From an uncultured Candidatus Saccharibacteria bacterium (GTDB lineage: Bacteria > Patescibacteriota > WWE3 > UBA101185 > UBA10185): a stretch of 35,476 nucleotides of DNA. The notes beneath the pieces were generated by a model. The model did not search any database. It saw only the letters and a list, made by a program, of their open reading frames with translations, and was not told the DNA's origin. The stretch is taken from contig CAZLHE010000003.1 of assembly GCA_964559585.1 (NCBI GenBank), positions 1-35,476 on the forward strand. The letters are read 5' to 3'. Of the stretch, positions 14,975 to 34,791 are shown piece after piece. Position numbers and translations under genes: made by a program. Each line of letters starts with the position of its first letter. The first letter of the stretch is position 1.

Positions 14975-15048
14975 ACCGGCGTAGCTCAGTGGCAGAGTAG
15001 CGGTCTCCAAAACCGTTGACGAAGGTTCGATTCCTCCCGCCGGTGCCA
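14975..15048 (+). tRNA. tRNA-Trp (anticodon CCA), 3' CCA encoded
   Basis: ACCGGCG-TA-GCTC-AGTGGCA-GAGT-A-GCGGT-CTCCAAA-ACCGT-TGAC-GAAGG-TTCGATT-CCTCC-CGCCGGT-G-CCA. There is one A-C mismatch in the T stem. Confidence 0.88.
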
Positions 15049-15069: not shown

Positions 15070-16101
15070 ATGAGTGAAAACATGAAAAGAGTTTTAACAG
15101 GAATAAGGCCTACAGGTCCTTTGCATTTGGGACACTATGTTGGGGCTTTGAAACAATGGGTTTTACTTCAGGATGAATATGAGTGCTTTTTTATGATCGC
15201 TGATGTTCAAGCTCTAACCACACATGCCGGTAACCCCAAGGTAATTGAAGAATCGGTTAGGGACGTTTTACTAGATTTTTTGGCAGTTGGACTGGATCCG
15301 ACAAAACCTAATGTTCATTTTATACTTCAAAGTGCAATTCCGGAGCTTACTGAGCTTACGGTTTATCTTTCAATGGTAACCCCTTTTACATGGATGCAAA
15401 GCAATCCTACAATTCAGCAAGAAAGCAAAGCCTTGGGTAAAGGAATATCCACAGGTTTTATGTGCTACCCTGTAAGCCAGGCAGCTGATATTTTGTTTGT
15501 TTCCCCTGATCCGGCTGAGTCAAGGGAAGAAATATTAGTCCCAGTTGGTGAAGATCAAGTGCCGCATCTAAGAGATACAAACAGCATTGTCTCCGCCTTT
15601 AATCGCATCTACTCACCAACTTTTAATGAATGCAAACCCTTATTGGGAGATTATCCAAGACTTGTTGGTACAGATGGACAATCGAAGATGTCAAAATCAT
15701 TGGATAACTGTATAAACCTAGGCGACGATGAAAAGACAGTTGAGAAAATGATAAAGGGAATGTTTACTGACCCAAACAGAATTCATCCAAACGACCCGGG
15801 GACAGTTGAGGGGAATCCTGTCTTTATATACCACGATATTTTTAATCCCAATAAGAAAGAAGTTGAGGATTTAAAGAAAAGATACAAGGAAGGAACGGTT
15901 GGGGATGTTGAAGTTAAAGAAAAACTTAACGTAGCCATTCAGTCTTTCTTGAAACCAATAAGAGAAAGAAGAAATCATGCTGAGAAGGTGGATATCAAGA
16001 AGTTTTTGGAAGACGGAACAGATTTTGCAAGAGGTCTTGCAGTTAAAACTTTGAGTAGAACTAGAAAAGCCATGCATTTGGATTATCCAAGTTTAAAGTA
16101 A
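15070..16101 (+). CDS. trpS: tryptophan--tRNA ligase
   Basis: Class I signatures PTGPLHLGHY (HIGH) and KMSKS. The start is set at ATG 15070 (MSENMKRVLTGIRPTG...) because the ORF-track start at 15016 lies inside tRNA-Trp. Confidence 0.93.
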   Translation: MSENMKRVLTGIRPTGPLHLGHYVGALKQWVLLQDEYECFFMIADVQALTTHAGNPKVIEESVRDVLLDFLAVGLDPTKPNVHFILQSAIPELTELTVYLSMVTPFTWMQSNPTIQQESKALGKGISTGFMCYPVSQAADILFVSPDPAESREEILVPVGEDQVPHLRDTNSIVSAFNRIYSPTFNECKPLLGDYPRLVGTDGQSKMSKSLDNCINLGDDEKTVEKMIKGMFTDPNRIHPNDPGTVEGNPVFIYHDIFNPNKKEVEDLKKRYKEGTVGDVEVKEKLNVAIQSFLKPIRERRNHAEKVDIKKFLEDGTDFARGLAVKTLSRTRKAMHLDYPSLK

Positions 16102-16107
16102 CTCCAT

Positions 16108-16137
16108 TTGACCCCTCCCTTTTTAACGTGTTATATT
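16108..16137 (+). promoter_or_regulatory. candidate promoter TTGACC-N18-TATATT for the two-tRNA unit
   Basis: TTGACC at 16108-16113 and TATATT at 16132-16137, about 40 nt upstream of the tRNA at 16179. Confidence 0.3.
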
Positions 16138-16178
16138 GTTTTTCTGTTATTGAATTCCGAACGATTGTCGGTTCAAAT

Positions 16179-16253
16179 GCGGGGGTAGCTCAGCCCGGTT
16201 AGAGCGCTACGTTTGATGCGTAGAGGTCGCGCGTTCAAGTCGCGTCCCCCGCT
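16179..16253 (+). tRNA. atypical class I tRNA, apparent anticodon UGA, Gly-type acceptor stem, no encoded CCA; identity unresolved
   Basis: GCGGGGG-TA-GCTC-AGCCCGGTTA-GAGC-G-CTACG-TTTGATG-CGTAG-AGGTC-GCGCG-TTCAAGT-CGCGT-CCCCCGC-T. The anticodon is at 16214-16216. Position 37 is U. The 5-nt variable region is not Ser-like. Confidence 0.7.
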
Positions 16254-16267
16254 TTTAGAGAGTACAA

Positions 16268-16409
16268 GTAGGCGTAGCTCAATGGTAGAGCGTCTCCTGG
16301 ATCTACTGATGATTAGGCTTTTATCGGTCCCTTGTGCCGAGCTTTATCCATCCACTGCCTAACATCTTTTATTAGGAGAAGGTTGCTGGTTCAAGTCCGG
16401 TCGCCTACA
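16268..16409 (+). tRNA. tRNA gene with a ~70-nt intervening sequence in the anticodon loop; anticodon unresolved; no encoded CCA
   Basis: A good cloverleaf apart from the loop: GTAGGCG-TA-GCTC-AATGGTA-GAGC-G-TCTCC-[77 nt, 16298-16374]-GGAGA-AGGTT-GCTGG-TTCAAGT-CCGGT-CGCCTAC-A. Confidence 0.65.
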
Positions 16410-16417
16410 TCTGAATT

Positions 16418-16460
16418 GAGGAACGATGTTTTGCTCATAAGCACTCGTTCCTCTTTGTTT
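16418..16460 (+). terminator. intrinsic terminator after the tRNA pair
   Basis: 9-bp stem GAGGAACGA (16418-16426) with TCGTTCCTC (16445-16453), followed by TTTGTTT. Confidence 0.6.
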
Positions 16461-16481
16461 ATCCTATTAATTTCTTATATT

Positions 16482-17750
16482 TTAATTGGCGTTGGCCAAG
16501 GATTTTATAGGCTCAAGCTTTTTGAAAAACCTGCCTATAAAGACTTGAGAAATAATTGCTGCTGTGGCGAGAAAAGCCACTAATCCCCTAGCTCCGATAA
16601 GCTCTGTTACTGATGCTGAAAGAGTTAACGGGATGATCGTAGCTAAAGTTACTAAAAACCAAATATTTCCAAATATTCGCCCTAACATATCCTTTGAGGT
16701 TGATTCCTGAATAAATGTTTGTGTTGGAACCTCGGCTCCAATAAAGGCTGCTCCAAAGCACAGAGATATTATCGGAATCACAATCAATCTTGCTATAGAC
16801 GGCAGATATCCGACAAACATTAAAGATATCAAGCACACGAAAGCAACTAGTAAAGAGTATTTTATAAATACTATTTTTCGAATTCCTTTTTTAATAAGTT
16901 TTGGTAATTGAGTTACTGCTATTATTGTGCCCAAAAGTGCCGGAGTTATGACAAGTATAGCGGCATCTTCAACTTTTAAATAAAAAAGCTGATGGGCCAT
17001 TACGGGGATATTTAAAGCAATTATTGTAGCTGTGATCTCAATGCCGGCAACAAAAACAAGCGGGTAAAGAATTGATTTATTAGCGCTTACGTATTTATAA
17101 CCATTTATGACTTCTTTTAGAAATCCCAAGAGTTGGTTTTCTACATTTATCTTTCTTATAGGTTTCGTTGAGGGTAATCTAAGAACACTTGCAAATGCTA
17201 TAAAACCTAAAATCCCACAAAAAATTAAACTGATATTAAAACCTAAAAATTTAAATAAAAATCCCGCTAACGCGTAAGCAGTAAAAGTAGCCACCTGTTT
17301 AGTTAAGTAAAATGTTCCGTTCACTTGAGGCAGGTCTTCCCGTTTAAAAAGTGTGGGAATAAATGCGGATTCTGAAGGTAGATAGAATTGATTAAGGAAG
17401 GAATAGATAAAAGCAATAGTATACATCAACATAAACTTATGGCTTACAGGAATGTAAAGAAGAATGGTGAAGGCTTGAAGAAGATTTGTAACTATAAGAA
17501 GTGTTCTTTTATTTACAAGGTCAACAAGGGTTGAAGCAAAGGGTCCTACAACTAAAACAGGAATGCTGTAGGCAAGCCACAGGAGTGTTACTGAGTAGGA
17601 CGATCCGGTCTCCTGGAATATTTTGAGAACGAGTAGATAATTGACAATACAAACCGAAAGTATCGAACTTATTTGTGATGCGAGGAGACATCTAAAGGCT
17701 TTGTTTTTGAGTGCGGCCTTTGAAAACATAATTGAAGTTAATTTTATCAC
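16482..17750 (-). CDS. MFS transporter
   Basis: 422 aa with about 12 hydrophobic spans. The loop motif TLVDLVNKRTLL resembles the MFS 2-3 loop. The ORF-track start is GTG (17750); the ATG at 17729 is an alternative. Confidence 0.82.
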   Translation of the reverse strand: MIKLTSIMFSKAALKNKAFRCLLASQISSILSVCIVNYLLVLKIFQETGSSYSVTLLWLAYSIPVLVVGPFASTLVDLVNKRTLLIVTNLLQAFTILLYIPVSHKFMLMYTIAFIYSFLNQFYLPSESAFIPTLFKREDLPQVNGTFYLTKQVATFTAYALAGFLFKFLGFNISLIFCGILGFIAFASVLRLPSTKPIRKINVENQLLGFLKEVINGYKYVSANKSILYPLVFVAGIEITATIIALNIPVMAHQLFYLKVEDAAILVITPALLGTIIAVTQLPKLIKKGIRKIVFIKYSLLVAFVCLISLMFVGYLPSIARLIVIPIISLCFGAAFIGAEVPTQTFIQESTSKDMLGRIFGNIWFLVTLATIIPLTLSASVTELIGARGLVAFLATAAIISQVFIGRFFKKLEPIKSLANAN

Positions 17751-17778
17751 TAGCTAGACTTTGTTTAAACCTGATTTT

Positions 17779-20277: not shown

Positions 20278-21246
20278 ATGACACCCCATACGAGTGCAGC
20301 AGCGCTGTCAGACTATCTGACCTGTCCGGCTTTGTACTACTTTAAGCACGTACTAAAGCTGAAGGGAATGATTAGTTACCCAATGTTATGTGGAAAGGCG
20401 GTTCATGAGTTTATCGCCGGCATGTATCGACAAAGACCGAAAGGCCGGAAGTTTTTCTATAAATCTCTTGAATCGGCATCAGGGGCGTGGCATTACAAAT
20501 GGTCAACAATGCTTAAGGAAAACGAAGAGTCATTGATGGAGCCCGATAAAGCAACTGCTGGGAAATACCGCAACATCGGGCTTAGATGTATTTCAAACTA
20601 TTGGAATGCTAATGAGTGTAAACCCGATCCAGTCGAAATTGAGCAAAGAAGAAGAATTAAGGTTTTTGGAGTGGATCTAGTTACTGTGTCTGATCAGGTT
20701 AGGGCTGTTAGCAATGAAGTAGTTGCTAGATATAGACCCGATCTTATTTCAGATGGGCAGTTAAATTCCGGCTACTCCCCGCAAGTAATAATTGACATAA
20801 AAACGTCTCTGAGTGATTGGGACAGGGGGAAAGATACATCTGAACTTGCAAAAGCAGGCAATCAGCACCACCTGGCGAGTAGTATTCAAGCCACGGCTTA
20901 TACCAGAGCCTATAAATACTATAACGGTGTGTGGCCAATTGGGTTTTTCTTTTACGCTCTTTACCACAACAAATTTTATTTTGTGTCGGTAGAAGATGAG
21001 GAGAGCCAAAAAAGATTAGATGAAGTCATCCTTCATTTAGTCAGGAATTTGAATTGCGAGTCTTTTCCGAAACACCCTACCCTAAACTGCAGAAATTGTG
21101 TGTGTCTACAACACTGCTTGGGAGAAAAAGGGATTCAGATATCTATAAATACAGACTCTCTAAGCGGTCCTGACATAAGACACATCTTCAAAAGAGAATG
21201 GAAAAGTAACCAACCAAAACAATTGAGATTTAAATTTCCTAGGTAA
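20278..21246 (+). CDS. PD-(D/E)XK nuclease with a Cas4/AddB-type 4-Cys (4Fe-4S) signature (orphan Cas4-like / RecB-family exonuclease)
   Basis: 322 aa. N-terminal SDYLTCPALYYFKH; GKAVHEF; IIDIKTS (D-x-K); QATAY (RecB-family QxxxY). C-terminal CRNCVCLQHC gives C-x2-C-x5-C, which with Cys16 completes the 4-Cys signature. AGGAG SD at 20267-20271. Confidence 0.75.
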   Translation: MTPHTSAAALSDYLTCPALYYFKHVLKLKGMISYPMLCGKAVHEFIAGMYRQRPKGRKFFYKSLESASGAWHYKWSTMLKENEESLMEPDKATAGKYRNIGLRCISNYWNANECKPDPVEIEQRRRIKVFGVDLVTVSDQVRAVSNEVVARYRPDLISDGQLNSGYSPQVIIDIKTSLSDWDRGKDTSELAKAGNQHHLASSIQATAYTRAYKYYNGVWPIGFFFYALYHNKFYFVSVEDEESQKRLDEVILHLVRNLNCESFPKHPTLNCRNCVCLQHCLGEKGIQISINTDSLSGPDIRHIFKREWKSNQPKQLRFKFPR

Positions 21247-26727: not shown

Positions 26728-29700
26728 ATGAACAATAAGATAAATTTCTACACATTAGGGCGGGATTTATCCATAAAGAAAAAATTTCCCTCAAAAAGGT
26801 TGTTTTCGCTGTTTAAATCAAATGAAGAATTAGATTACAAGAGCCTATTTATTGGAATAAACGATCTATACACCTATTTGGTTGTGGAATACGAAAAAAA
26901 TCCCGAGATAGTGCCATTGTCCGCCTCTTGGATTTTAGACAATTATTATTTAATCAGTCAGCAGTCTGTAATTTTTAAGGATACATTCAAACCAAAAATA
27001 CTCAAGAAGCTTCCTTTAGTGGAATACGAAAATATATATTTTCAAGTTCATTATATTGCTAAAAAGTATCTTGAAATTACGAGCTGCGAATTTTCACAAG
27101 AGAGCCTCATACCGTTTCTTAAGGGGTATCAGAAAATTTACCCGTTATCTAGTGTGGAGTTGTGGATTTTACCTACTGTGATAAGATACGAACTCCTCCG
27201 CTCCTTATTAATTAGAGGTCAGGAGATAAAGGAAAAGATACAGAACGGTAAGTTTGCTAATCGAGTTGTGGAAGAAATTTCATTAAATCTAAGTAAGGGA
27301 AAAAATCCAATTAAGAGGGTGAGAAAAATTTTGCATGTAGCAGACATAAATCCACACGTTTTGTTATCAGTATTAGAAGATATTCGAGAATTGGACTATC
27401 GCGTAGAGGATACCTTGGAACTTATTGAAGGGAAAATTCACGAAGATGACCTTAACTTAGAGGAATTTACCCGTGCAAGTGTCTTGAGAGATCTAGACTT
27501 AAAACAAAATCTAAATAATACGGTTACCTCCATAAAAAACTTTTCGTACATTAATTGGAATAAGCTTTTCAACAGAGTAAGTATCGTGGAAAGTACCCTG
27601 ATGAACGATCCCGCAAATGTTTATCCTTTGATGGATGAGATTAGTAAAGATAGGTATCGACATGTTATTGAAGATATGAGTGTTAATAGCAATTTTAGTG
27701 AATCCGAGATTGCAAGAAAGGTGGTTGAGACTGCAGAGGCTTCTAATATTGATATACAACGCCACGTGGGTTTTCACTTAATTGATAACGGTTATTTTGA
27801 ATTTTCCAACAAAGTGGGGTTTAAGCCGTCCTTAAAGGGAAAGATCAAAGACCTAATGAAAAAGCATCCCTATATTAGCTACATAGGAAGTATTGTTTTT
27901 TTAACCTTTTTATTTTCTGCTATTTCCTTTTTAGTTTTTGTCAGCATTACGCACCATACAAGTTTTGTAGTCTTGGCCTTGATATCACAACTAATACCTG
28001 TTTCTAATATTTCTATTTTCTTCGTCAATAAAATATTTATACTTTTTCTACCTCCGGCACTTCCACCTAAAATTGACTTAGTTGATCGGGTACCTGAAGA
28101 TTGTAAAACTCTGATTGTCGTTCCGTGTTTATTACCCAGTAACGAAAAAATTGATAGTTTAGTCAGTGACCTGGAAAAAAGGTTTTTGTCAAATAAATAC
28201 AACAATCTTTATTTTGCTTTGCTTAGTGACTACAAAGACTCAAATGAAATAGAGTCGGAGGAAGATAAGAAACCGCTTTTATATTTGAGGAGGAAGATTA
28301 GGAAGTTGAATCTCAAGCACCGTGCGGCGGGATTTGATGTATTTTATCTATTTCATAGGAATCGTTTGTTTAATGAAAAGGAAAATGTGTGGATGGGTTG
28401 GGAGAGAAAAAGAGGAAAACTTCTGGAGCTGGTAGACTGGTTAACCCGGAAAAAAGATAGCATTGCTACCACTTTCTCGGTTATAGACGGTAACATAGAT
28501 AAATTACAAAATATAAAATACGTTATAACGCTTGATGAAGATACTATGCTACCGGCGGACATCTCGCTTAAACTCATCGGTGCAATGACTCATCCGCTTA
28601 ATGTACCTGTTCTGGACCACGGAAAAAAAATTGTTGTACGTGGTTACGGCTTTATACAACCCAAAATTATAATAGAGCCTGAGGCGGAAAACCTGTCCCC
28701 TTTCACCAAGATATTTGTCGCAGAAAGTGGCTACGATTCCTACTCCACCGCTGTTTCAGATATTTACCAAGATTTATTTAATAGATCTAACTTTATGGGT
28801 AAAGGAATTTTTGACGTTTGGGCGATCAAAGAAAGTTTGGGAGAAAGATTTCCTGAAAATAAGCTTCTAAGTCACGATTTAATAGAGAGTTGTTTTGCAA
28901 AAGCCGGGTTTTTATCCGACACGAGTTTAATGGAAGAATTTCCTTCCGCCTTCCGCAGTTACTTATCAAGAGATAATCGTTGGGTACGAGGAGACTGGCA
29001 ACTCTTACCCTGGTTGTTACCACATATTGTTACAACTGATGGTAGGAAGATTAAAAACCCATTAGATCTACTATCTTATTGGATGATAGTAGATAATCTT
29101 AGAAGAAGTTTGGTTTTGCCGGCCTACTTACTTTTGTTTGTGTTAGGGTGGCTATTTATACCATCTGCCCTTTTGACTTTCTATATTGCGGTTTTGTTTT
29201 TCGCCCCTCTTTTTATTGATATTTTTAGTATTAAAAAATTTATTGTTCACAAAATACCCTTTGTAGAAAAGCTAAAACTTTCCTTAATTTTTATGATCGG
29301 AAAAACCACTTTCATATTTACGTCTTTCGTCCTTCTGTGGTCATTAGCTTTTAATAAAGTTAACGCCGTCATCACGACGCTTTATCGCTTAAGTCTTAAC
29401 AGGCGCCTACTGGAGTGGACCACGCATAGAGACGTGGAACAGCTAAAGAGTAAACAAAACAGTGTTTGGGACTTACTAATTTCAAAGTTCACTTTTTTCA
29501 ATTTGGTTATTCTAGCTGCGCTATTTTTATTAAATAGATTTTCTTTTCTTAATATTTCTATTATAGTTCTCTGGGCTCTTTCACCTTTATATATTTTTTA
29601 TATAAGTAAGCTCTACCCAAAACCTAAATTTTCAGACCAGATAAAAGACAAAGAAAAAATGCTTTTTTACGCTAAAAAGATATGGTCATTTTTTGAAGAG

Positions 29701-32700
29701 TACACGAATGAAGAAAGTAACTACCTTCCACCGGATAACTTACAACTATCTCCTGTAAAAAAAGTTACATACAGGACTTCTCCCACCAATATAGGGTTCT
29801 ACCTTTTGTCTCTTTTATCTTCCTATGATCTCAATATTATAGATTTAGACAATTTATTGGATAAACTAGAAAAAACCTTGGGCACTTTGTATAAACTGCC
29901 TAAATATAGGGGCCATATCTACAACTGGTATGACCTAAAAACTTTGGAACCTCTGAATCCTTACATTTCTACAGCAGACAGCGGTAACTTTGTAGTCTCC
30001 TTGATGTTACTGGAGTCTTCGTGTTTATCTTTATCCCAAGATATAAAAAAGGAAAGTGTAGAACAATCTAAAAGATTACTGAAGCTTTCACACCTAATTA
30101 AGAGATTGTATACAAAAACTGACTTTACCTTTTTGTACGACAAAGATCTGTCTATATTTTCTATAGGATTTAACACTCTCACGAAGAAAAAAGACGGCAG
30201 TTATTACGATCTCTTAGCGTCTGAGGCGCGTATTGTAAGTTACGTTGCCATAGCCTTAGATCAAGTGGAACTTAAGCATTGGTTTAAACTAGGGCGTCCT
30301 CTTAGAGTAAGAAATGGAAAATTTTATCTAATGTCCTGGGGAGGTACTATATTTGAGTATCTTTTACCGACTCTGCTTTTTAACGAAAAAAATAACACAA
30401 TTTTAAGTCAGACGAGTAGAGAGATTTATTACTTTCAAAAAAAATATGCCGCAGATAATGGAATTCCCTTTGGTGTGTCTGAATCAAACTTTGATGCTTT
30501 TGATTTTGACTATAATTATCAATATAAAATGATGGGCGTTCCTGGTTTGGCGCTAAAAAGATACGATACCAAAGATTTGGTAGTTTCTCCGTATTCTACT
30601 TTTTTGTCATTGATGATAAACCCAACCGAAGCTGAAGAAAATCTACATTTACTTGAAAATGAAGGAGTTTTTGGAGCATATGGATTTTTTGAATCTGTAG
30701 ATTTTAATAGATCGGTGGAAAATCCTAAGAAAGGGGAAAATGTAAAAATTTACACAGCGCACCACCAAGGTATGAGTTTGGTAGCTATAAATAATGTCCT
30801 TAATGAGAAAATAATGATAGATAGATTGCAAAAAAATGATTACATAAAATCTTGTGAGGTGTTGTTAGATGAGAAAATACCTGAAGTCTCAAATGTTGTA
30901 GAGCCAAATCAATACACTCTTGATAGAAGACTCACGTTAGTTAGGAAATTTGAAAAAGAGAGGGTTCGATATTCTAATACTCCAAATACTTTATTCCCAT
31001 TGGCACAAATATACGGAAATGGGAGCTACATGCTTATGATCACAAATTCTGGGGCGAGTTACAGCAAATTTAAAGACACCTACATTAATAGATTTAACGA
31101 GGACTTTACTTTGGATAGTTCTGGAAGCCATATCTATATTAAGGATGTGGATCTTAATTACGCGTGGTCCGCTACGTATCAGCCTACATTAACAAATCCC
31201 GATGAATATGAGGTGAAGTTTTATGCTGAGTACGCCCAATTTCATAGAATAGACAAGAAAACAGAAACTGAACTAAATATTTTCGTACCGCCGGAAAAGA
31301 ACTTTGAAATAAGGGAATTAACTTTATCTAATAAATCAAGTATGTCCAAATCTTATGAGATAACTACTTATACAGAAATAATGTTAGATGAATATAAATC
31401 AGGAATTAACCACCCTGCGTTTAATAAGCTGTTTATAGAAACCGACTATGAAAATGGCATGTTAACCGCCAGAAGAAAAAAAAGGTATTTCCATGACATA
31501 GAAAAATATGCTTTTCATTTTGCATTTTCTGAAGATGGCGACTTGTCTGTGGATTCATATGACACAAGCAGACCAAACTTTGTCGGTAGGTTAAAATCTG
31601 TACAAAATCCCGCTGCCTTAAATTCTGCACTTACCAATAGTGTGGGTACGGTTCTCGATCCTATTTTTAGTCTACGTTATAAAGTTAATGTTAAGCCCGG
31701 AGAGACAAGGAAAATACATTTTGTGTATGGGTACGCTGCCAACTTACATGAGGTTAGAGCAACAAAGGATTTACTTTTTTCGAAAGAGGAAATACAGGAA
31801 TTACGTTATTTGAATAGCCATTATATTGAAGCTAAGAGGACTCATTTAGGAATTGACGTGAGACAGGAGCTTAGTTTCCAAAAGGTTGCTTCGAGATTAG
31901 TTTATTCAGACCATCGTTTGAAAGAACAAATTAATATTGATTACACCAAAGAAAAAAGAATTTTATACAGATTTGGTATTTCGGGAGAAAACAAATTACT
32001 AGTGTTAAAAGTAAATAGTAAAAACATTGAATTAGTAAGAAATATGGCTCTCTTACACGAATACTTCAGACTTTTAAGATTTCGGTTTGACCTTGTATTT
32101 ATAATTGACGAAACACAGAGTTACGAGGAGAACCTAGAACGCGGTGTTTACGAAGTTATCGAAACTTCTCTACCCCATCCTTATAAAGATTCGGGGGTTT
32201 ATACACTAAATGTAAATAACATGTCCCTTGAGGAGAGATTTACATTACTGTCTTTGGCAAGAATCGTTTTTGACACGTCTTTAGGTTCTTTAGACGAACA
32301 GATCAACTTTGCTTCAAGCTCTGGCACACCCGACACGGTTGCCTTTAAAGAAGCAGCACAACAGGAATTAATTGGGAGTATCAGTTTAGTAAAAAATGTT
32401 AGTGAGGATCTAATTTATTACAATGGGTTAGGAGGTTTTACGTCTGAAGGAAAAAGTTATGTTATTAAGTTTTCTCCGGAAAACCCAACTCCCCTACCGT
32501 GGTCAAATGTGATCTCAAACGAAAAATTTGGCACATTGGTTACAGAATCGGGTTTGGGTTATACATGGAACATTAATAGCCAAATAAATAAAATTACTCC
32601 TTGGTCAAATGACTTTGTAAGCGATCCGCAAGGTGAAGTTTTGTATCTTAAGGATTTGGATTCGGGGAGTATTTTTAGTGCCACACCATTGCCTAATAAG

Positions 32701-34791
32701 AGCGGCGAGTTTAAAGTAACACACTCCCAGGGCTACTCTGAATTTATAGGTAAAAATGGAAATATAGAGCACACATTAAAGGTATTTGTAGATAAACAGG
32801 ATCCTGTGAAGATATTAAAGCTAACTTTAGCAAATAATAGTAATTATAGTAAGAAGATAGAGTGTTCCCATTACGTTGAATTTGTTTTAGGGGAGCATGG
32901 GAATTTAACTCAAGAAAACCTAAATATTAAATTTGAATCTGTAAGGCAAAGCATAATTGCTAGAAATCTTTTTAACGATTCCTTTACAAATCAGTTAGCT
33001 TTTATGGCTACAAGCAGACCAATAATTGCGGCAACTTCGGACAGGAAGAAATTTTTTGGCAGAGGTAGCTCTAGAAAAACACCGTTGTGGGTGTTGAATA
33101 ATAAGAAAGGTGTTACAGGGTTCAAGTCCGTTTCTGATAAATGCGGGGTTTTAACTACTGAAGTGGAAATTCCAAGTAACTCCCAAGTAAGTTTAGTATT
33201 TTTATTAGGACAAACTGATGAAATTGACAATGTAGGTTCATTAATTGATAAGTACACTAGTTTAGACCGGGTAGATAAAAGTTTTGAAGAAGTAAAGGAA
33301 TTATGGAACAAGCTTCAGTCTACTATTACGGTTAAAACCCCAGATAGTAAATTTGATTACCTGGTGAATAACTGGCTCCTTTACCAAGTGTTGTCCTGCC
33401 GTTTATATGGGCGAACATCTTTCTATCAAGCAGCAGGAGCTTTTGGTTTTAGAGATCAGTTGCAGGATGTTATGGCTCTGGTTTATGCCGACCCTAAGAA
33501 ATTAAGGAATCATATAATTTTATGCTGTGGCCACCAATTTAAAGAAGGAGATGTGCAACACTGGTGGCACTATCCGTCAAATGCGGGTGTTAGAACAAAA
33601 ATCAGTGACGATTTGTTGTGGCTTCCTTATGTAGTGAGTTACTACATTGAAAAAACCGGAGACACCGGTATCTTAAATGAAGAAGTTTCCTATTTAGAAA
33701 TGCAGGCTTTAGAACAGCACGAAGAAAGTGTATATGGTATTCCTAGCGTTTCGGGGGAACGAGGTAATGTGCTTGATCACTGTTTGAGGGCCATAAATAA
33801 ATCCCTAAATTTTGGAGCTCACGGACTGCCTTTAATTGGTTCCGGTGACTGGAACGATAGTTTAAATAGCGTAGGAGACGAGGGAAAAGGAGAAAGTGTC
33901 TGGTTAGGGATGTTTCTATTTGCTGTGTTAGATAACTTTACGGAAGTTTTAGAAAATACTGACCATAAAGAAGAATTATCCAGATATATGTCAGTTTCCG
34001 AAGAACTTAAGAAAAATCTAGATGTAAGTGGTTGGGATGGGGATTGGTATATAAGAGCTTTTTACGATGATGGTACTCCTTTGGGTTCCCATATTAATAA
34101 CGAATGTATCATTGACTCTATCTCGCAATCGTGGAGTGTAATTTCTAAAGTAGCAGCTCCTGAAAAGGCAATAAAAGCTATGGAAAGTCATGAAAAATAT
34201 CTTGAAAATAAGGATAGGAAGCTAATTAACTTACTCACACCACCTTTTAAGGACTCAGCACCTTTCCCGGGGTATATACAAGGTTATCCTGAGGGAATAA
34301 GGGAAAACGGGGGGCAGTATACGCACGGAGCGCTTTGGGCCGTGAGAGCCTACGCGATGCAAAAAAGAGGAGATAAAGCCTATGAATTGTTCGATATGCT
34401 AAACCCAATTAGTCGTTCGCTTGACAAAAAGAGCGTAGCAGAATACAAATCTGAACCTTACGTAATGGTAGCGGATGTCTACTCTAATCCACAACATTTG
34501 GGAAGGGGCGGTTGGAGTTGGTACACAGGATCAGCGGGTTTGATTTATCGTATTGGTATAGAAGATATATTGGGTTTTAAGAAGTATCCTGATTTCTTCA
34601 CTTTGGATCCGGTTATTCCAGGAGTTTGGGATGCCTTTGAGATGAAGTACACTTATGGAAAGACTACCTATAATATAAATGTTAAAAGAGGTGAGAACAC
34701 GGGTTTGTACATAGGTGGCAAAAAGTCTGATGAAAATAAAGTATTTTTAAAGGATGATATCGGGGATATAGAGGTTTCTTTAGTTATCTAA
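26728..34791 (+). CDS. giant multidomain cyclic beta-1,2-glucan synthase-like protein (N-terminal domain, GT84, TM block, central alpha-helical domain, C-terminal GH94)
   Basis: Uninterrupted 2,687-aa frame. Processive-GT motifs are LDEDT (nt 28531-28545) and RWVRGDWQLLPW (nt 28978-29013). Hydrophobic clusters lie at about aa 385-450 and 790-960. GH94-like motifs are FRDQLQD (nt 33448-33468), GDWND (nt 33844-33858) and ENGGQYTHGALW. Size and domain order match Cgs/NdvB/ChvB. Confidence 0.85.
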   Translation: MNNKINFYTLGRDLSIKKKFPSKRLFSLFKSNEELDYKSLFIGINDLYTYLVVEYEKNPEIVPLSASWILDNYYLISQQSVIFKDTFKPKILKKLPLVEYENIYFQVHYIAKKYLEITSCEFSQESLIPFLKGYQKIYPLSSVELWILPTVIRYELLRSLLIRGQEIKEKIQNGKFANRVVEEISLNLSKGKNPIKRVRKILHVADINPHVLLSVLEDIRELDYRVEDTLELIEGKIHEDDLNLEEFTRASVLRDLDLKQNLNNTVTSIKNFSYINWNKLFNRVSIVESTLMNDPANVYPLMDEISKDRYRHVIEDMSVNSNFSESEIARKVVETAEASNIDIQRHVGFHLIDNGYFEFSNKVGFKPSLKGKIKDLMKKHPYISYIGSIVFLTFLFSAISFLVFVSITHHTSFVVLALISQLIPVSNISIFFVNKIFILFLPPALPPKIDLVDRVPEDCKTLIVVPCLLPSNEKIDSLVSDLEKRFLSNKYNNLYFALLSDYKDSNEIESEEDKKPLLYLRRKIRKLNLKHRAAGFDVFYLFHRNRLFNEKENVWMGWERKRGKLLELVDWLTRKKDSIATTFSVIDGNIDKLQNIKYVITLDEDTMLPADISLKLIGAMTHPLNVPVLDHGKKIVVRGYGFIQPKIIIEPEAENLSPFTKIFVAESGYDSYSTAVSDIYQDLFNRSNFMGKGIFDVWAIKESLGERFPENKLLSHDLIESCFAKAGFLSDTSLMEEFPSAFRSYLSRDNRWVRGDWQLLPWLLPHIVTTDGRKIKNPLDLLSYWMIVDNLRRSLVLPAYLLLFVLGWLFIPSALLTFYIAVLFFAPLFIDIFSIKKFIVHKIPFVEKLKLSLIFMIGKTTFIFTSFVLLWSLAFNKVNAVITTLYRLSLNRRLLEWTTHRDVEQLKSKQNSVWDLLISKFTFFNLVILAALFLLNRFSFLNISIIVLWALSPLYIFYISKLYPKPKFSDQIKDKEKMLFYAKKIWSFFEEYTNEESNYLPPDNLQLSPVKKVTYRTSPTNIGFYLLSLLSSYDLNIIDLDNLLDKLEKTLGTLYKLPKYRGHIYNWYDLKTLEPLNPYISTADSGNFVVSLMLLESSCLSLSQDIKKESVEQSKRLLKLSHLIKRLYTKTDFTFLYDKDLSIFSIGFNTLTKKKDGSYYDLLASEARIVSYVAIALDQVELKHWFKLGRPLRVRNGKFYLMSWGGTIFEYLLPTLLFNEKNNTILSQTSREIYYFQKKYAADNGIPFGVSESNFDAFDFDYNYQYKMMGVPGLALKRYDTKDLVVSPYSTFLSLMINPTEAEENLHLLENEGVFGAYGFFESVDFNRSVENPKKGENVKIYTAHHQGMSLVAINNVLNEKIMIDRLQKNDYIKSCEVLLDEKIPEVSNVVEPNQYTLDRRLTLVRKFEKERVRYSNTPNTLFPLAQIYGNGSYMLMITNSGASYSKFKDTYINRFNEDFTLDSSGSHIYIKDVDLNYAWSATYQPTLTNPDEYEVKFYAEYAQFHRIDKKTETELNIFVPPEKNFEIRELTLSNKSSMSKSYEITTYTEIMLDEYKSGINHPAFNKLFIETDYENGMLTARRKKRYFHDIEKYAFHFAFSEDGDLSVDSYDTSRPNFVGRLKSVQNPAALNSALTNSVGTVLDPIFSLRYKVNVKPGETRKIHFVYGYAANLHEVRATKDLLFSKEEIQELRYLNSHYIEAKRTHLGIDVRQELSFQKVASRLVYSDHRLKEQINIDYTKEKRILYRFGISGENKLLVLKVNSKNIELVRNMALLHEYFRLLRFRFDLVFIIDETQSYEENLERGVYEVIETSLPHPYKDSGVYTLNVNNMSLEERFTLLSLARIVFDTSLGSLDEQINFASSSGTPDTVAFKEAAQQELIGSISLVKNVSEDLIYYNGLGGFTSEGKSYVIKFSPENPTPLPWSNVISNEKFGTLVTESGLGYTWNINSQINKITPWSNDFVSDPQGEVLYLKDLDSGSIFSATPLPNKSGEFKVTHSQGYSEFIGKNGNIEHTLKVFVDKQDPVKILKLTLANNSNYSKKIECSHYVEFVLGEHGNLTQENLNIKFESVRQSIIARNLFNDSFTNQLAFMATSRPIIAATSDRKKFFGRGSSRKTPLWVLNNKKGVTGFKSVSDKCGVLTTEVEIPSNSQVSLVFLLGQTDEIDNVGSLIDKYTSLDRVDKSFEEVKELWNKLQSTITVKTPDSKFDYLVNNWLLYQVLSCRLYGRTSFYQAAGAFGFRDQLQDVMALVYADPKKLRNHIILCCGHQFKEGDVQHWWHYPSNAGVRTKISDDLLWLPYVVSYYIEKTGDTGILNEEVSYLEMQALEQHEESVYGIPSVSGERGNVLDHCLRAINKSLNFGAHGLPLIGSGDWNDSLNSVGDEGKGESVWLGMFLFAVLDNFTEVLENTDHKEELSRYMSVSEELKKNLDVSGWDGDWYIRAFYDDGTPLGSHINNECIIDSISQSWSVISKVAAPEKAIKAMESHEKYLENKDRKLINLLTPPFKDSAPFPGYIQGYPEGIRENGGQYTHGALWAVRAYAMQKRGDKAYELFDMLNPISRSLDKKSVAEYKSEPYVMVADVYSNPQHLGRGGWSWYTGSAGLIYRIGIEDILGFKKYPDFFTLDPVIPGVWDAFEMKYTYGKTTYNINVKRGENTGLYIGGKKSDENKVFLKDDIGDIEVSLVI

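Follow-up and report, generated by a model that had tools for sequence, protein, structure and literature searches.

The window analyzed here, a 35,476-nucleotide (nt) stretch (contig CAZLHE010000003.1 of assembly GCA_964559585.1), comes from an uncultured, groundwater-type, WWE3-like Patescibacteria bacterium. It is ordinary chromosomal DNA of 37% G+C that carries housekeeping and envelope genes. Downstream of trpS (15070-16101) lies a small unit of transfer RNA (tRNA) genes on the forward strand, to which all tRNA-unit features given below belong. The first gene, t1, occupies 16179-16253, and after a spacer of 14 nt follows the second, t2 (16268-16409), which is interrupted in its anticodon loop. 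The insert is genuine and unusual, is limited in its distribution, and is best classed as a kind of tRNA intervening sequence.

The body of t2 is that of a normal tRNA. The Rfam family RF00005 spans 16268-16409 with 51.1 bits (gathering score 29, E=2.7e-8, model positions 1-71), and its alignment puts a 76-nt insertion in the anticodon loop. In this alignment the 5' exon (16268-16297) comprises the acceptor 5' strand, the D arm and the 5' strand of the anticodon stem (positions 1-31). The 3' exon (16375-16409) comprises the 3' strand of the anticodon stem, the variable loop AGGUU, the T arm, the acceptor 3' strand and A73, while CCA is not encoded. A preliminary description of this DNA had called the acceptor, D and T arms canonical, and they are: GTAGGCG (16268-16274) faces CGCCTAC (16402-16408), GCTC (16277-16280) faces GAGC (16288-16291), and the T loop reads TTCAAGT (16390-16396). 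The anticodon stem, TCTCC (16293-16297) with GGAGA (16375-16379), likewise closes 77 nt (16298-16374) as described, in place of the usual 7-nt anticodon loop with U33 and a purine at 37. Inspection of the gene finds all class-I tertiary-contact bases present: U8, A14, A15-U48, G18, G19, A21 and G26.A44, along with G10-C25-G45, C13-G22-G46, U54, U55, C56, A58 and G53-C61. ARAGORN misses t2 at its default settings; run with intron detection, it finds the gene as 'tRNA-Stop(tta)' with a 68-nt intron.

By Rfam, ARAGORN and folding, the region between the anticodon-stem strands (16298-16374) consists of an intervening sequence of 66-70 nt, depending on the register of excision, and the residues of a future 7-nt loop. 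At minimum energy the whole gene folds as a cloverleaf whose anticodon arm extends into the insert. The predicted 3-bp extension of the anticodon stem, proposed earlier, pairs 16298-16300 with 16372-16374 (U16298-A16374, G16299.U16373 and G16300.U16372). Inward of it a 7x5 internal loop leads to two helices, GAUG/CAUC of 4 bp and UUAGGC/GCCUAA of 6 bp, which are separated by the bulged A16312 and capped by an inner hairpin. The 5' strands of the two helices form GAUG-A-UUAGGC (16308-16318) and the 3' strands form GCCUAACAUC (16357-16366). The fold bears out the structured insert of the preliminary description, with these helices and a smaller TCGG/CCGA hairpin, but not its coordinates for the 3' arm GCCTAACATC, which had been placed at 16358-16367 and lies one base to the left, at 16357-16366. 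Between the helix strands, the block most conserved among the sequence types compared below (16319-16342) holds the hairpin UCGGU-CCCUUGU-GCCGA (16324-16340). It is followed by a predicted single-stranded linker (16343-16356), made up of a variable, indel-rich stretch (16343-16345) and the conserved AUCCAUCCA (16346-16354). The region ends in UUUUAUUA (16367-16374), which the type comparison marks as conserved and which, with ARAGORN, must supply the mature anticodon loop. The fold has a z-score of −2.0 over the whole gene and of −2.6 over the arm.

This interrupted gene, about 10% diverged, is also found elsewhere. It lies at 1281-1425 of L089, a 20-kb contig from another sample (depth ~12) whose operon consists of t1, t2 and a third tRNA, and on short contigs of five further groundwater and sediment runs (X2, X5-X7 and X9). 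Because independent assemblies from other samples share it, the interrupted gene is not an assembly artefact, and a chimeric join at 16298-16374 can be dismissed. Four sequence types are distinguished: A is the window; B is found in X5, X6 and X7; C is L089 (= X8) and X9; and D is X2, which is partial. Types B and D were rebuilt from difference tables, not read directly. Run X1 is credited with all sampled words of 16150-16480, yet no X1 contig is placed there.

Across these types the exons are more constrained than the insert. Types A and B differ at none of 65 exon positions, against six substitutions and three indel events in the 77-nt loop region (p=0.03 for substitutions, p=0.004 for all events). 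Types A and C have seven exon differences, six of which keep the cloverleaf. Four of them keep or improve a pair (C-G to U.G, two G.U to A-U, and G-C to G.U), including G16385A, G16399A and C16408U in the 3' exon; two fall at the variable T-loop positions 59 and 60, and the remaining one breaks pair 27:43, leaving an A.A mismatch. The 5' exon is the same in types A, B and C through 16292. The L089 gene matches the window up to that position and diverges beyond it, which suggests, from the sequence comparison, recombination within the t2 gene.

These comparisons bear on the view that t2 is a tolerated or decaying accessory gene, in which a small insertion, such as a rearrangement footprint, disabled a dispensable tRNA and the insert is neutral and folds by chance. 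Exons that change less than the insert while the cloverleaf is preserved make a dead pseudogene unlikely. The insert has moreover been kept through about 10% divergence in four types, neither lost nor truncated, the promoter and terminator described below are retained, and the stem extension stays paired through the changes at 16299 and 16300. The insert's divergence of 8-13%, similar to that of flanking non-coding DNA, is a point for decay, as are the modest z-scores and the lack of any compensatory double change. On balance decay is a distinctly unlikely explanation. The preliminary description had left three options, namely a new intervening sequence, an inactivated tRNA and a tRNA-like RNA; the insert proves real, inherited and structured, and the dead gene has become the less likely of them.

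The divergence of the insert is unevenly distributed. RNAalifold, applied to types A, B and C, gives the window's own fold, and type C alone folds into the same architecture. Pair 16299:16373 changes from G.U to A-U in type C, 16300:16372 does so in types B, C and D, and 16310:16364 changes from U-A to U.G in type C. At 16314:16361 the U-A pair of the window is likewise replaced by U.G in type C, whereas types B and D have a C.A mismatch there. The best-conserved parts are the hairpin block 16319-16342, with a single change across types A, B, C and D (C16329U, in the loop), AUCCAUCCA, and the 3' end UCUUU(U/A)AUUA. Variable positions and many indels are found at the 5' end (16299-16307) and at 16343-16345, and in type C MAFFT misaligns that 5' end. 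Since the insert is overall as divergent as its flanks, any constraint on it is local. The covariation raised in the preliminary description thus comes out in two parts: the insert is conserved in relatives that carry t2, but its helices show no compensatory pairs. Two other proposals for the insert were rejected. A 17-codon ATG...TAA frame lies wholly within it (16309-16362), but as an insert-encoded peptide it is frame-shifted among types A, B and C though the nucleotides are conserved; and a pairing of UGGAU with AUCCA is altered on the 5' side only in type B.

The conservation of the hairpin block and of AUCCAUCCA at the sequence level argues for a different role, that of an unspliced RNA on a tRNA scaffold. 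The 142-nt transcript would be end-processed like a tRNA, retain its insert and persist as a stable, non-decoding molecule that acts through its long anticodon arm, which might for instance bind a protein or another RNA. In type C, U16370A and the loss of C16303 close much of the internal loop and lengthen the arm helix, making it nearly continuous, and no splicing signal was found in the insert. The body of t2, on the other hand, keeps all decoding features (G26.A44 and a 5-bp anticodon stem), which would be needless in a mere scaffold; the insert as a whole diverges about like flanking intergenic DNA, and no partner or target has been identified. A retained insert is therefore rather unlikely, though its case is strengthened by the neighboring tRNAs considered below.

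The distribution of t2 is narrow. The window's trpS product is 97% identical (tblastn) to that of the Patescibacteria metagenome-assembled genome (MAG) L001, and its identity to the trpS products of WWE3 and further Patescibacteria MAGs is 67-81%. L001 is collinear with the window at ~93% identity to 16100 and again from 17753; between these points the two are different. At this site L001 (4124-4200) and L093-L098 (about 3611-3700 in L093-L095 and L098) have an intron-less tRNA, here the S tRNA, with the loop GUUUAAA (UUA, ochre), counted in five genomes, and they are without t2, as are other WWE3 genomes. L086 has an MFS gene and L090 dinB directly after trpS, neither with a tRNA unit, and in L002 no tRNA lies downstream of trpS, where a 237-amino-acid (aa) reverse-strand open reading frame (ORF) is followed by an MFS gene. 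That more distant relatives have nothing at the site makes the tRNA unit an accessory one, and its absence from the closest relatives, in an island that is a hotspot of gain, loss and mosaicism, speaks for the decaying gene. The segment from trpS to a gene for a 241-aa protein is itself mosaic among close relatives (window 16101-17752, L001 4032-4755, L089 1114-4383). It contains tRNAs and an MFS gene in the window; tRNAs, dinB (IMS) and an MFS gene in L089; and one tRNA and a dinB remnant broken into 50-aa ORFs in L001.

Searches beyond these loci returned little. Among the trpS neighborhoods of 80 GTDB species and 15 protein-fetched loci, the only full-length second copy of t2 is that of L089. 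A scan of L089 and L090 at the Rfam gathering threshold failed to report L089 t1 and t2 (1193-1425), both of which ARAGORN finds. The window copies score 51-57 bits, which indicates that Rfam's speed filters can lose such genes, so the negative scans of relatives were repeated in ARAGORN intron mode. The window and the 98 loci hold no second copy of the insert. In JGI metagenomes an exon-pattern scan gave no match and an insert-pattern scan gave three, in GC-rich coding DNA, which are due to chance. Pattern scans of viral contigs with insert blocks, exon halves and the S tRNA gave zero matches; blastn against phage records returned generic tRNA-fragment matches only and no sequence similarity of t2. 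A phage-derived insert, absent from viral contigs and phage records, was accordingly rejected, as was a mobile-element copy of the miniature inverted-repeat type, since neither the window nor the loci nor the same runs hold a further copy and there is no target duplication.

The unit carries predicted signals of its own. A consensus scan finds a promoter-like site, TTGACC-18-TATATT with an extended −10 (TGTTATATT), at 16108-16137, upstream of the two tRNAs. The −35 and the TGTTATATT or TGTTATAGT elements are kept upstream of the first tRNA in L089, L084 and L085, and a leader hairpin is likewise conserved there. At the other end, a terminator-like hairpin, GAGGAACG...CGUUCCUC (16418-16453), followed by UUUGUUUA (to 16461), closes the unit in the fold. 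Its free energy is −18.3 kcal/mol (z = −4.98, with 0 of 200 shuffles equally stable), and a simple scan overlooked it because of its long loop.

No known class of intron or RNA describes the insert. As had been proposed, it was compared with Rfam, and no family matches it even at E<=10; scanned at this threshold, the region 16150-16520 and the insert alone yield only tRNA and a weak YrlA echo from the tRNA-like part, which at 22 bits against a gathering score of 69 excludes a YrlA (Y RNA-like) molecule. A group I intron is rejected on the lack of any Intron_gpI match at E<=10, the length of 66-70 nt and the missing terminal G: every register that keeps U33 ends the intron in U or C, and the last G before the 3' exon in the window is G16357. 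A bulge-helix-bulge intron is rejected by a brute-force scan of all cut pairs in types A, B and C, which restores no normal loop. A single candidate possesses an outer helix, and it would leave the loop UGGAUCA (G33) in type A, UGAAGCA in type B and no more than 6 nt in type C. The minimum-energy fold has a 1-nt bulge on one side of the 4-bp helix and a 7x5 internal loop on the other, where this intron class has 3-nt bulges. Among the 26 proteins of the window, which samples 35 kb of the genome, there is no RNA ligase or EndA.

The remaining candidates fare no better. Hammerhead, twister, pistol, hatchet and HDV-like ribozymes have no Rfam match at E<=10. The sequence CUGAUGA (16306-16312) resembles a hammerhead core or box C, but inspection finds neither GAAA nor a three-way junction. 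UGAUGA (16307-16312) could serve as box C of a box C/D RNA, but its GAUG pairs Watson-Crick with CAUC, a CUGA box D is present in type C only (types A and B have CUAA nearby), and the insert has no Rfam match of the small nucleolar RNA type at E<=10. ARAGORN reports no transfer-messenger RNA, and RNase III-type staggered cutting, considered by reasoning only, fits no register. That the insert belongs to one of the known types (group I, bulge-helix-bulge, hammerhead, HDV-like or box C/D) or is an assembly chimera is thus highly improbable: the likeness of CUGAUGA to known motifs and the 4-bp helix GAUG/CAUC between unpaired bases are outweighed by the empty Rfam scans of the insert alone and in context, the wrong intron end, the abnormal loops of the lone bulge-helix-bulge-like solution and the independent assemblies that carry the insert.

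If the insert is removed, three registers restore a 7-nt loop, and the spliced forms of all three pass ARAGORN. Removal of 70 nt gives UUUAUUA, with anticodon UAU in types A and B and AAU in type C; it keeps the canonical 5-bp stem and G26.A44 and leaves U37. Removal of 68 nt, ARAGORN's choice, gives UUUUAUU, with UUA in types A and B and UAA in type C, on a stem slipped by one base. Removal of 66 nt gives CUUUUAU, with UUU in types A and B and UUA in type C; this is the sole register with a purine at 37 (A37), and it needs a 7-bp stem. The preliminary description was right that removal of 70 nt from a fixed 5-bp stem yields UUUAUUA (UAU), but too strong in calling it the only way. In this fixed-stem register the wobble base is at position 16370, which is U in types A and B but A in type C and X9; U16370A, the only substitution in the conserved 3' block, retains an NAU (Ile-box) anticodon. 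Because the canonical body is kept and the sole 3'-block substitution falls on the wobble position within the Ile box, sequence considerations favor the 70-nt register. A73, A38, U12-A23 and the GGUUCAAGUCC T arm of t2 resemble those of bacterial tRNA-Ile, and genes of the window use the codon AUA frequently (32.6 per 1000).

The 68-nt register deserves separate mention, since its product would be an ochre suppressor with anticodon UUA. ARAGORN's best model is this one, the A.A mismatch at 27:43 in type C fits a slipped stem, and at the same site the intron-less S tRNA(UUA) replaces t1 and t2 in L001 and L093-L098, while L089 has a tRNA(CUA). The slip, however, disrupts G26.A44 and yields U37 and U38, and the same register in type C reads UAA (Leu), which is no suppressor. 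TAA is moreover the main stop of the window (19 of 26 genes), and an efficient ochre suppressor would be costly. A suppressor product is improbable.

The neighboring tRNAs are odd as well. t1 scores 56.6 bits in Rfam and is called 'Ser(tga)' by ARAGORN; it combines the loop UUUGAUG (anticodon UGA, U37) with a Gly-like acceptor (G1 C2 G3, U73) and has no long variable arm. Its loop differs in each relative: UUUGAUG in the window, UUCGUUA in L089 (1193-1267), UUAUCAA in L084 (3129-3200) and UGCUCAA in L085 (4440-4512). Between the window and L089, three of the 7 loop bases are changed versus three of 68 elsewhere (p=0.009). ARAGORN's labels for these genes (Ser, Thr, Asp, Ser) derive from the anticodon alone. 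The third tRNA of L089 (1451-1524) is the orthologue of the S tRNA and has the loop AUCUAAA (CUA, amber); an acceptor-stem pair of this suppressor-type tRNA has changed on both sides (G-C to A-U), which points to structural selection. Judged by these comparisons, the island is a set of spare tRNAs whose anticodon loops turn over fast. Such turnover weakens arguments from anticodon conservation and leaves room for a non-decoding role of t2; the non-canonical, rapidly changing loops (t1 UUUGAUG and UUCGUUA, S tRNA GUUUAAA and AUCUAAA) suggest functions beyond normal decoding and so lend support to the unspliced RNA.

The reading preferred here, tentatively, is that the insert is an intron-like intervening sequence of unclassified kind, removed to give a 72-nt tRNA with an NAU anticodon. 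t2 would be transcribed as an accessory tRNA gene with a heritable, folded intervening sequence of 66-70 nt, and its precursor would fold into the normal L-shaped body. U36, U37 and A38, in the 3' part of the later loop, would pair with the first bases of the insert and so lengthen the anticodon stem into a long arm. Removal would proceed neither by group I self-splicing nor by archaeal bulge-helix-bulge cleavage; a host endonuclease with an RNA ligase, or an unrecognized small ribozyme, are the candidate routes. The product would be a tRNA with the loop UUNAUUA, with anticodon UAU in the window and AAU in the L089 relative, probably an isoleucine tRNA that reads AUA and has an unusual U37. 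The RF00005 score and the tertiary bases argue for this reading, as do at least four types from independent metagenomes, the constraint on the exons, the unit's own promoter-like site, kept in relatives, and the strong terminator hairpin. So do the stem extension, whose pairs survive the G.U to A-U changes, the like architecture into which type C folds by itself, the wobble substitution within the Ile box, the tRNA-Ile-like features and the frequency of AUA codons.

Several observations weigh against it. A U37 would be highly unusual in a tRNA that reads ANN codons. No group I core, omega-G or bulge-helix-bulge motif was found in the insert as a known splicing signal. The insert helices are supported by one-sided changes only, alongside two mismatches, in three to four closely related sequences. 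U16370A of type C may, on the predicted fold, be a structural rather than a wobble change. The trpS neighborhoods of the 80 GTDB species and the 15 protein-fetched loci contain no uninterrupted t2 orthologue, and the lack of t2 in L001 and L093-L098 shows it to be dispensable. Finally, the intron-less tRNAs of the island have odd, fast-changing anticodon loops, and the island may not be made of ordinary decoders.

Comparison with known systems places the insert apart from each of them. Group I introns of bacterial tRNAs reside in tRNA-Leu(UAA), tRNA-fMet, tRNA-Ile2 and tRNA-Arg, and have a P1-P9 core and a terminal G. t2 resembles them in its bacterial host, its anticodon-loop insertion in a normal body and its being missed by a default finder, but differs in an insert of 66-70 nt that lacks an Intron_gpI signal and ends in U or C. 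Archaeal and eukaryal introns are recognized by a bulge-helix-bulge and processed by EndA together with RtcB or Trl1; that of yeast tRNA-Ile(UAU) has 60 nt. The insert of t2 is of similar size, pairs with loop bases and extends the anticodon stem, and one possible product is likewise a tRNA-Ile(UAU). It differs in its bacterial host, in its position at the 5' side of the loop (about 31/32-32/33) instead of 37/38, and in lacking an arrangement of 3-nt bulge, 4-bp helix and 3-nt bulge that restores a normal loop. In engineered tRNA scaffolds, foreign RNA replaces the anticodon loop, and such chimeras can be stable and unspliced in bacteria. They share with t2 an intact acceptor/D/T body whose anticodon stem closes a structured insert, a layout that counts for the unspliced RNA, although the scaffolds are artificial and t2 is natural.

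The literature on bacterial tRNA introns fits only in part with the preliminary description, which had taken them to be group I introns of about 200 nt or more and short ones to be confined to archaea and eukaryotes. The first statement agrees with the finding that bacterial tRNA group I introns are mostly >200 nt, in genes that default tRNA finders miss (PMC8450103). The second needs qualifying, since the Lak megaphages have 'enigmatic' tRNA introns of 79-114 nt (Devoto et al. 2019, PMC6784885, Table S6). These are the nearest precedent: like them, the t2 insert is short, lies in the anticodon loop within a bacterial-type genetic system, belongs to no Rfam class and is conserved between strains. 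The Lak introns are inserted after position 37, downstream of the anticodon, and include T-arm-like GGTTCGAATCC segments (PMC6784885). In t2 the 5' flank is variable (UGGAUCU, UGAAGCU and UAACUUA) and has no U33, whereas conserved loop bases are found 3' of the insert; no GGTTCGA-like T-arm motif occurs within the insert. The differing insertion point and T-arm-like segments indicate that the t2 insert is not of the same family.

For short tRNA introns in cellular bacteria, including Patescibacteria, the literature search found nothing; in the literature reviewed, cellular bacteria have only large group I tRNA introns, and protein-dependent tRNA splicing is an archaeal and eukaryal trait. A conserved, short insert that is not a group I intron could expose a new bacterial splicing route or, alternatively, provide a natural case in which a tRNA body serves to carry another RNA module as its scaffold. 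That it represents a new class, a bacterial tRNA intron of ~70 nt removed by an unknown mini-ribozyme or by protein-based splicing in Patescibacteria, is somewhat unlikely; if true, the protein-based route would mean that RtcB and other bacterial RNA ligases have a splicing substrate in nature. The setting also raises the question of how candidate-phyla bacteria use spare tRNAs, as the t2 operon varies between strains and contains odd tRNAs, with ochre and amber suppressor anticodons among them, in a genome whose genes mostly end in TAA.

Other features of the window and its relatives are of separate interest. The tRNA-Tyr of the window has the long variable arm of bacteria. A tRNA-Trp(CCA) at 14975-15048 lies directly upstream of trpS, a pairing kept across WWE3-like relatives. 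The islands of L084 and L085 hold, between the first tRNA and a tRNA(GCG), a conserved 86-aa ORF (MICVGNITKFFSDHPE...; L085 4547-4807, L084 3235-3411) that has no Pfam match. At 20278-21246 the window has a gene of the PD-(D/E)XK (PDDEXK_1) nuclease family where L089, L090 and L092 have a DNA_alkylation-repair gene; this is another variable spot, and no link between it and the tRNAs was found. A protein of 2687 aa, encoded at 26728-34791, combines GT2, glucoamylase-like and GH94 domains in the architecture of a cyclic beta-1,2-glucan synthase, and is large for a bacterium with a small genome.

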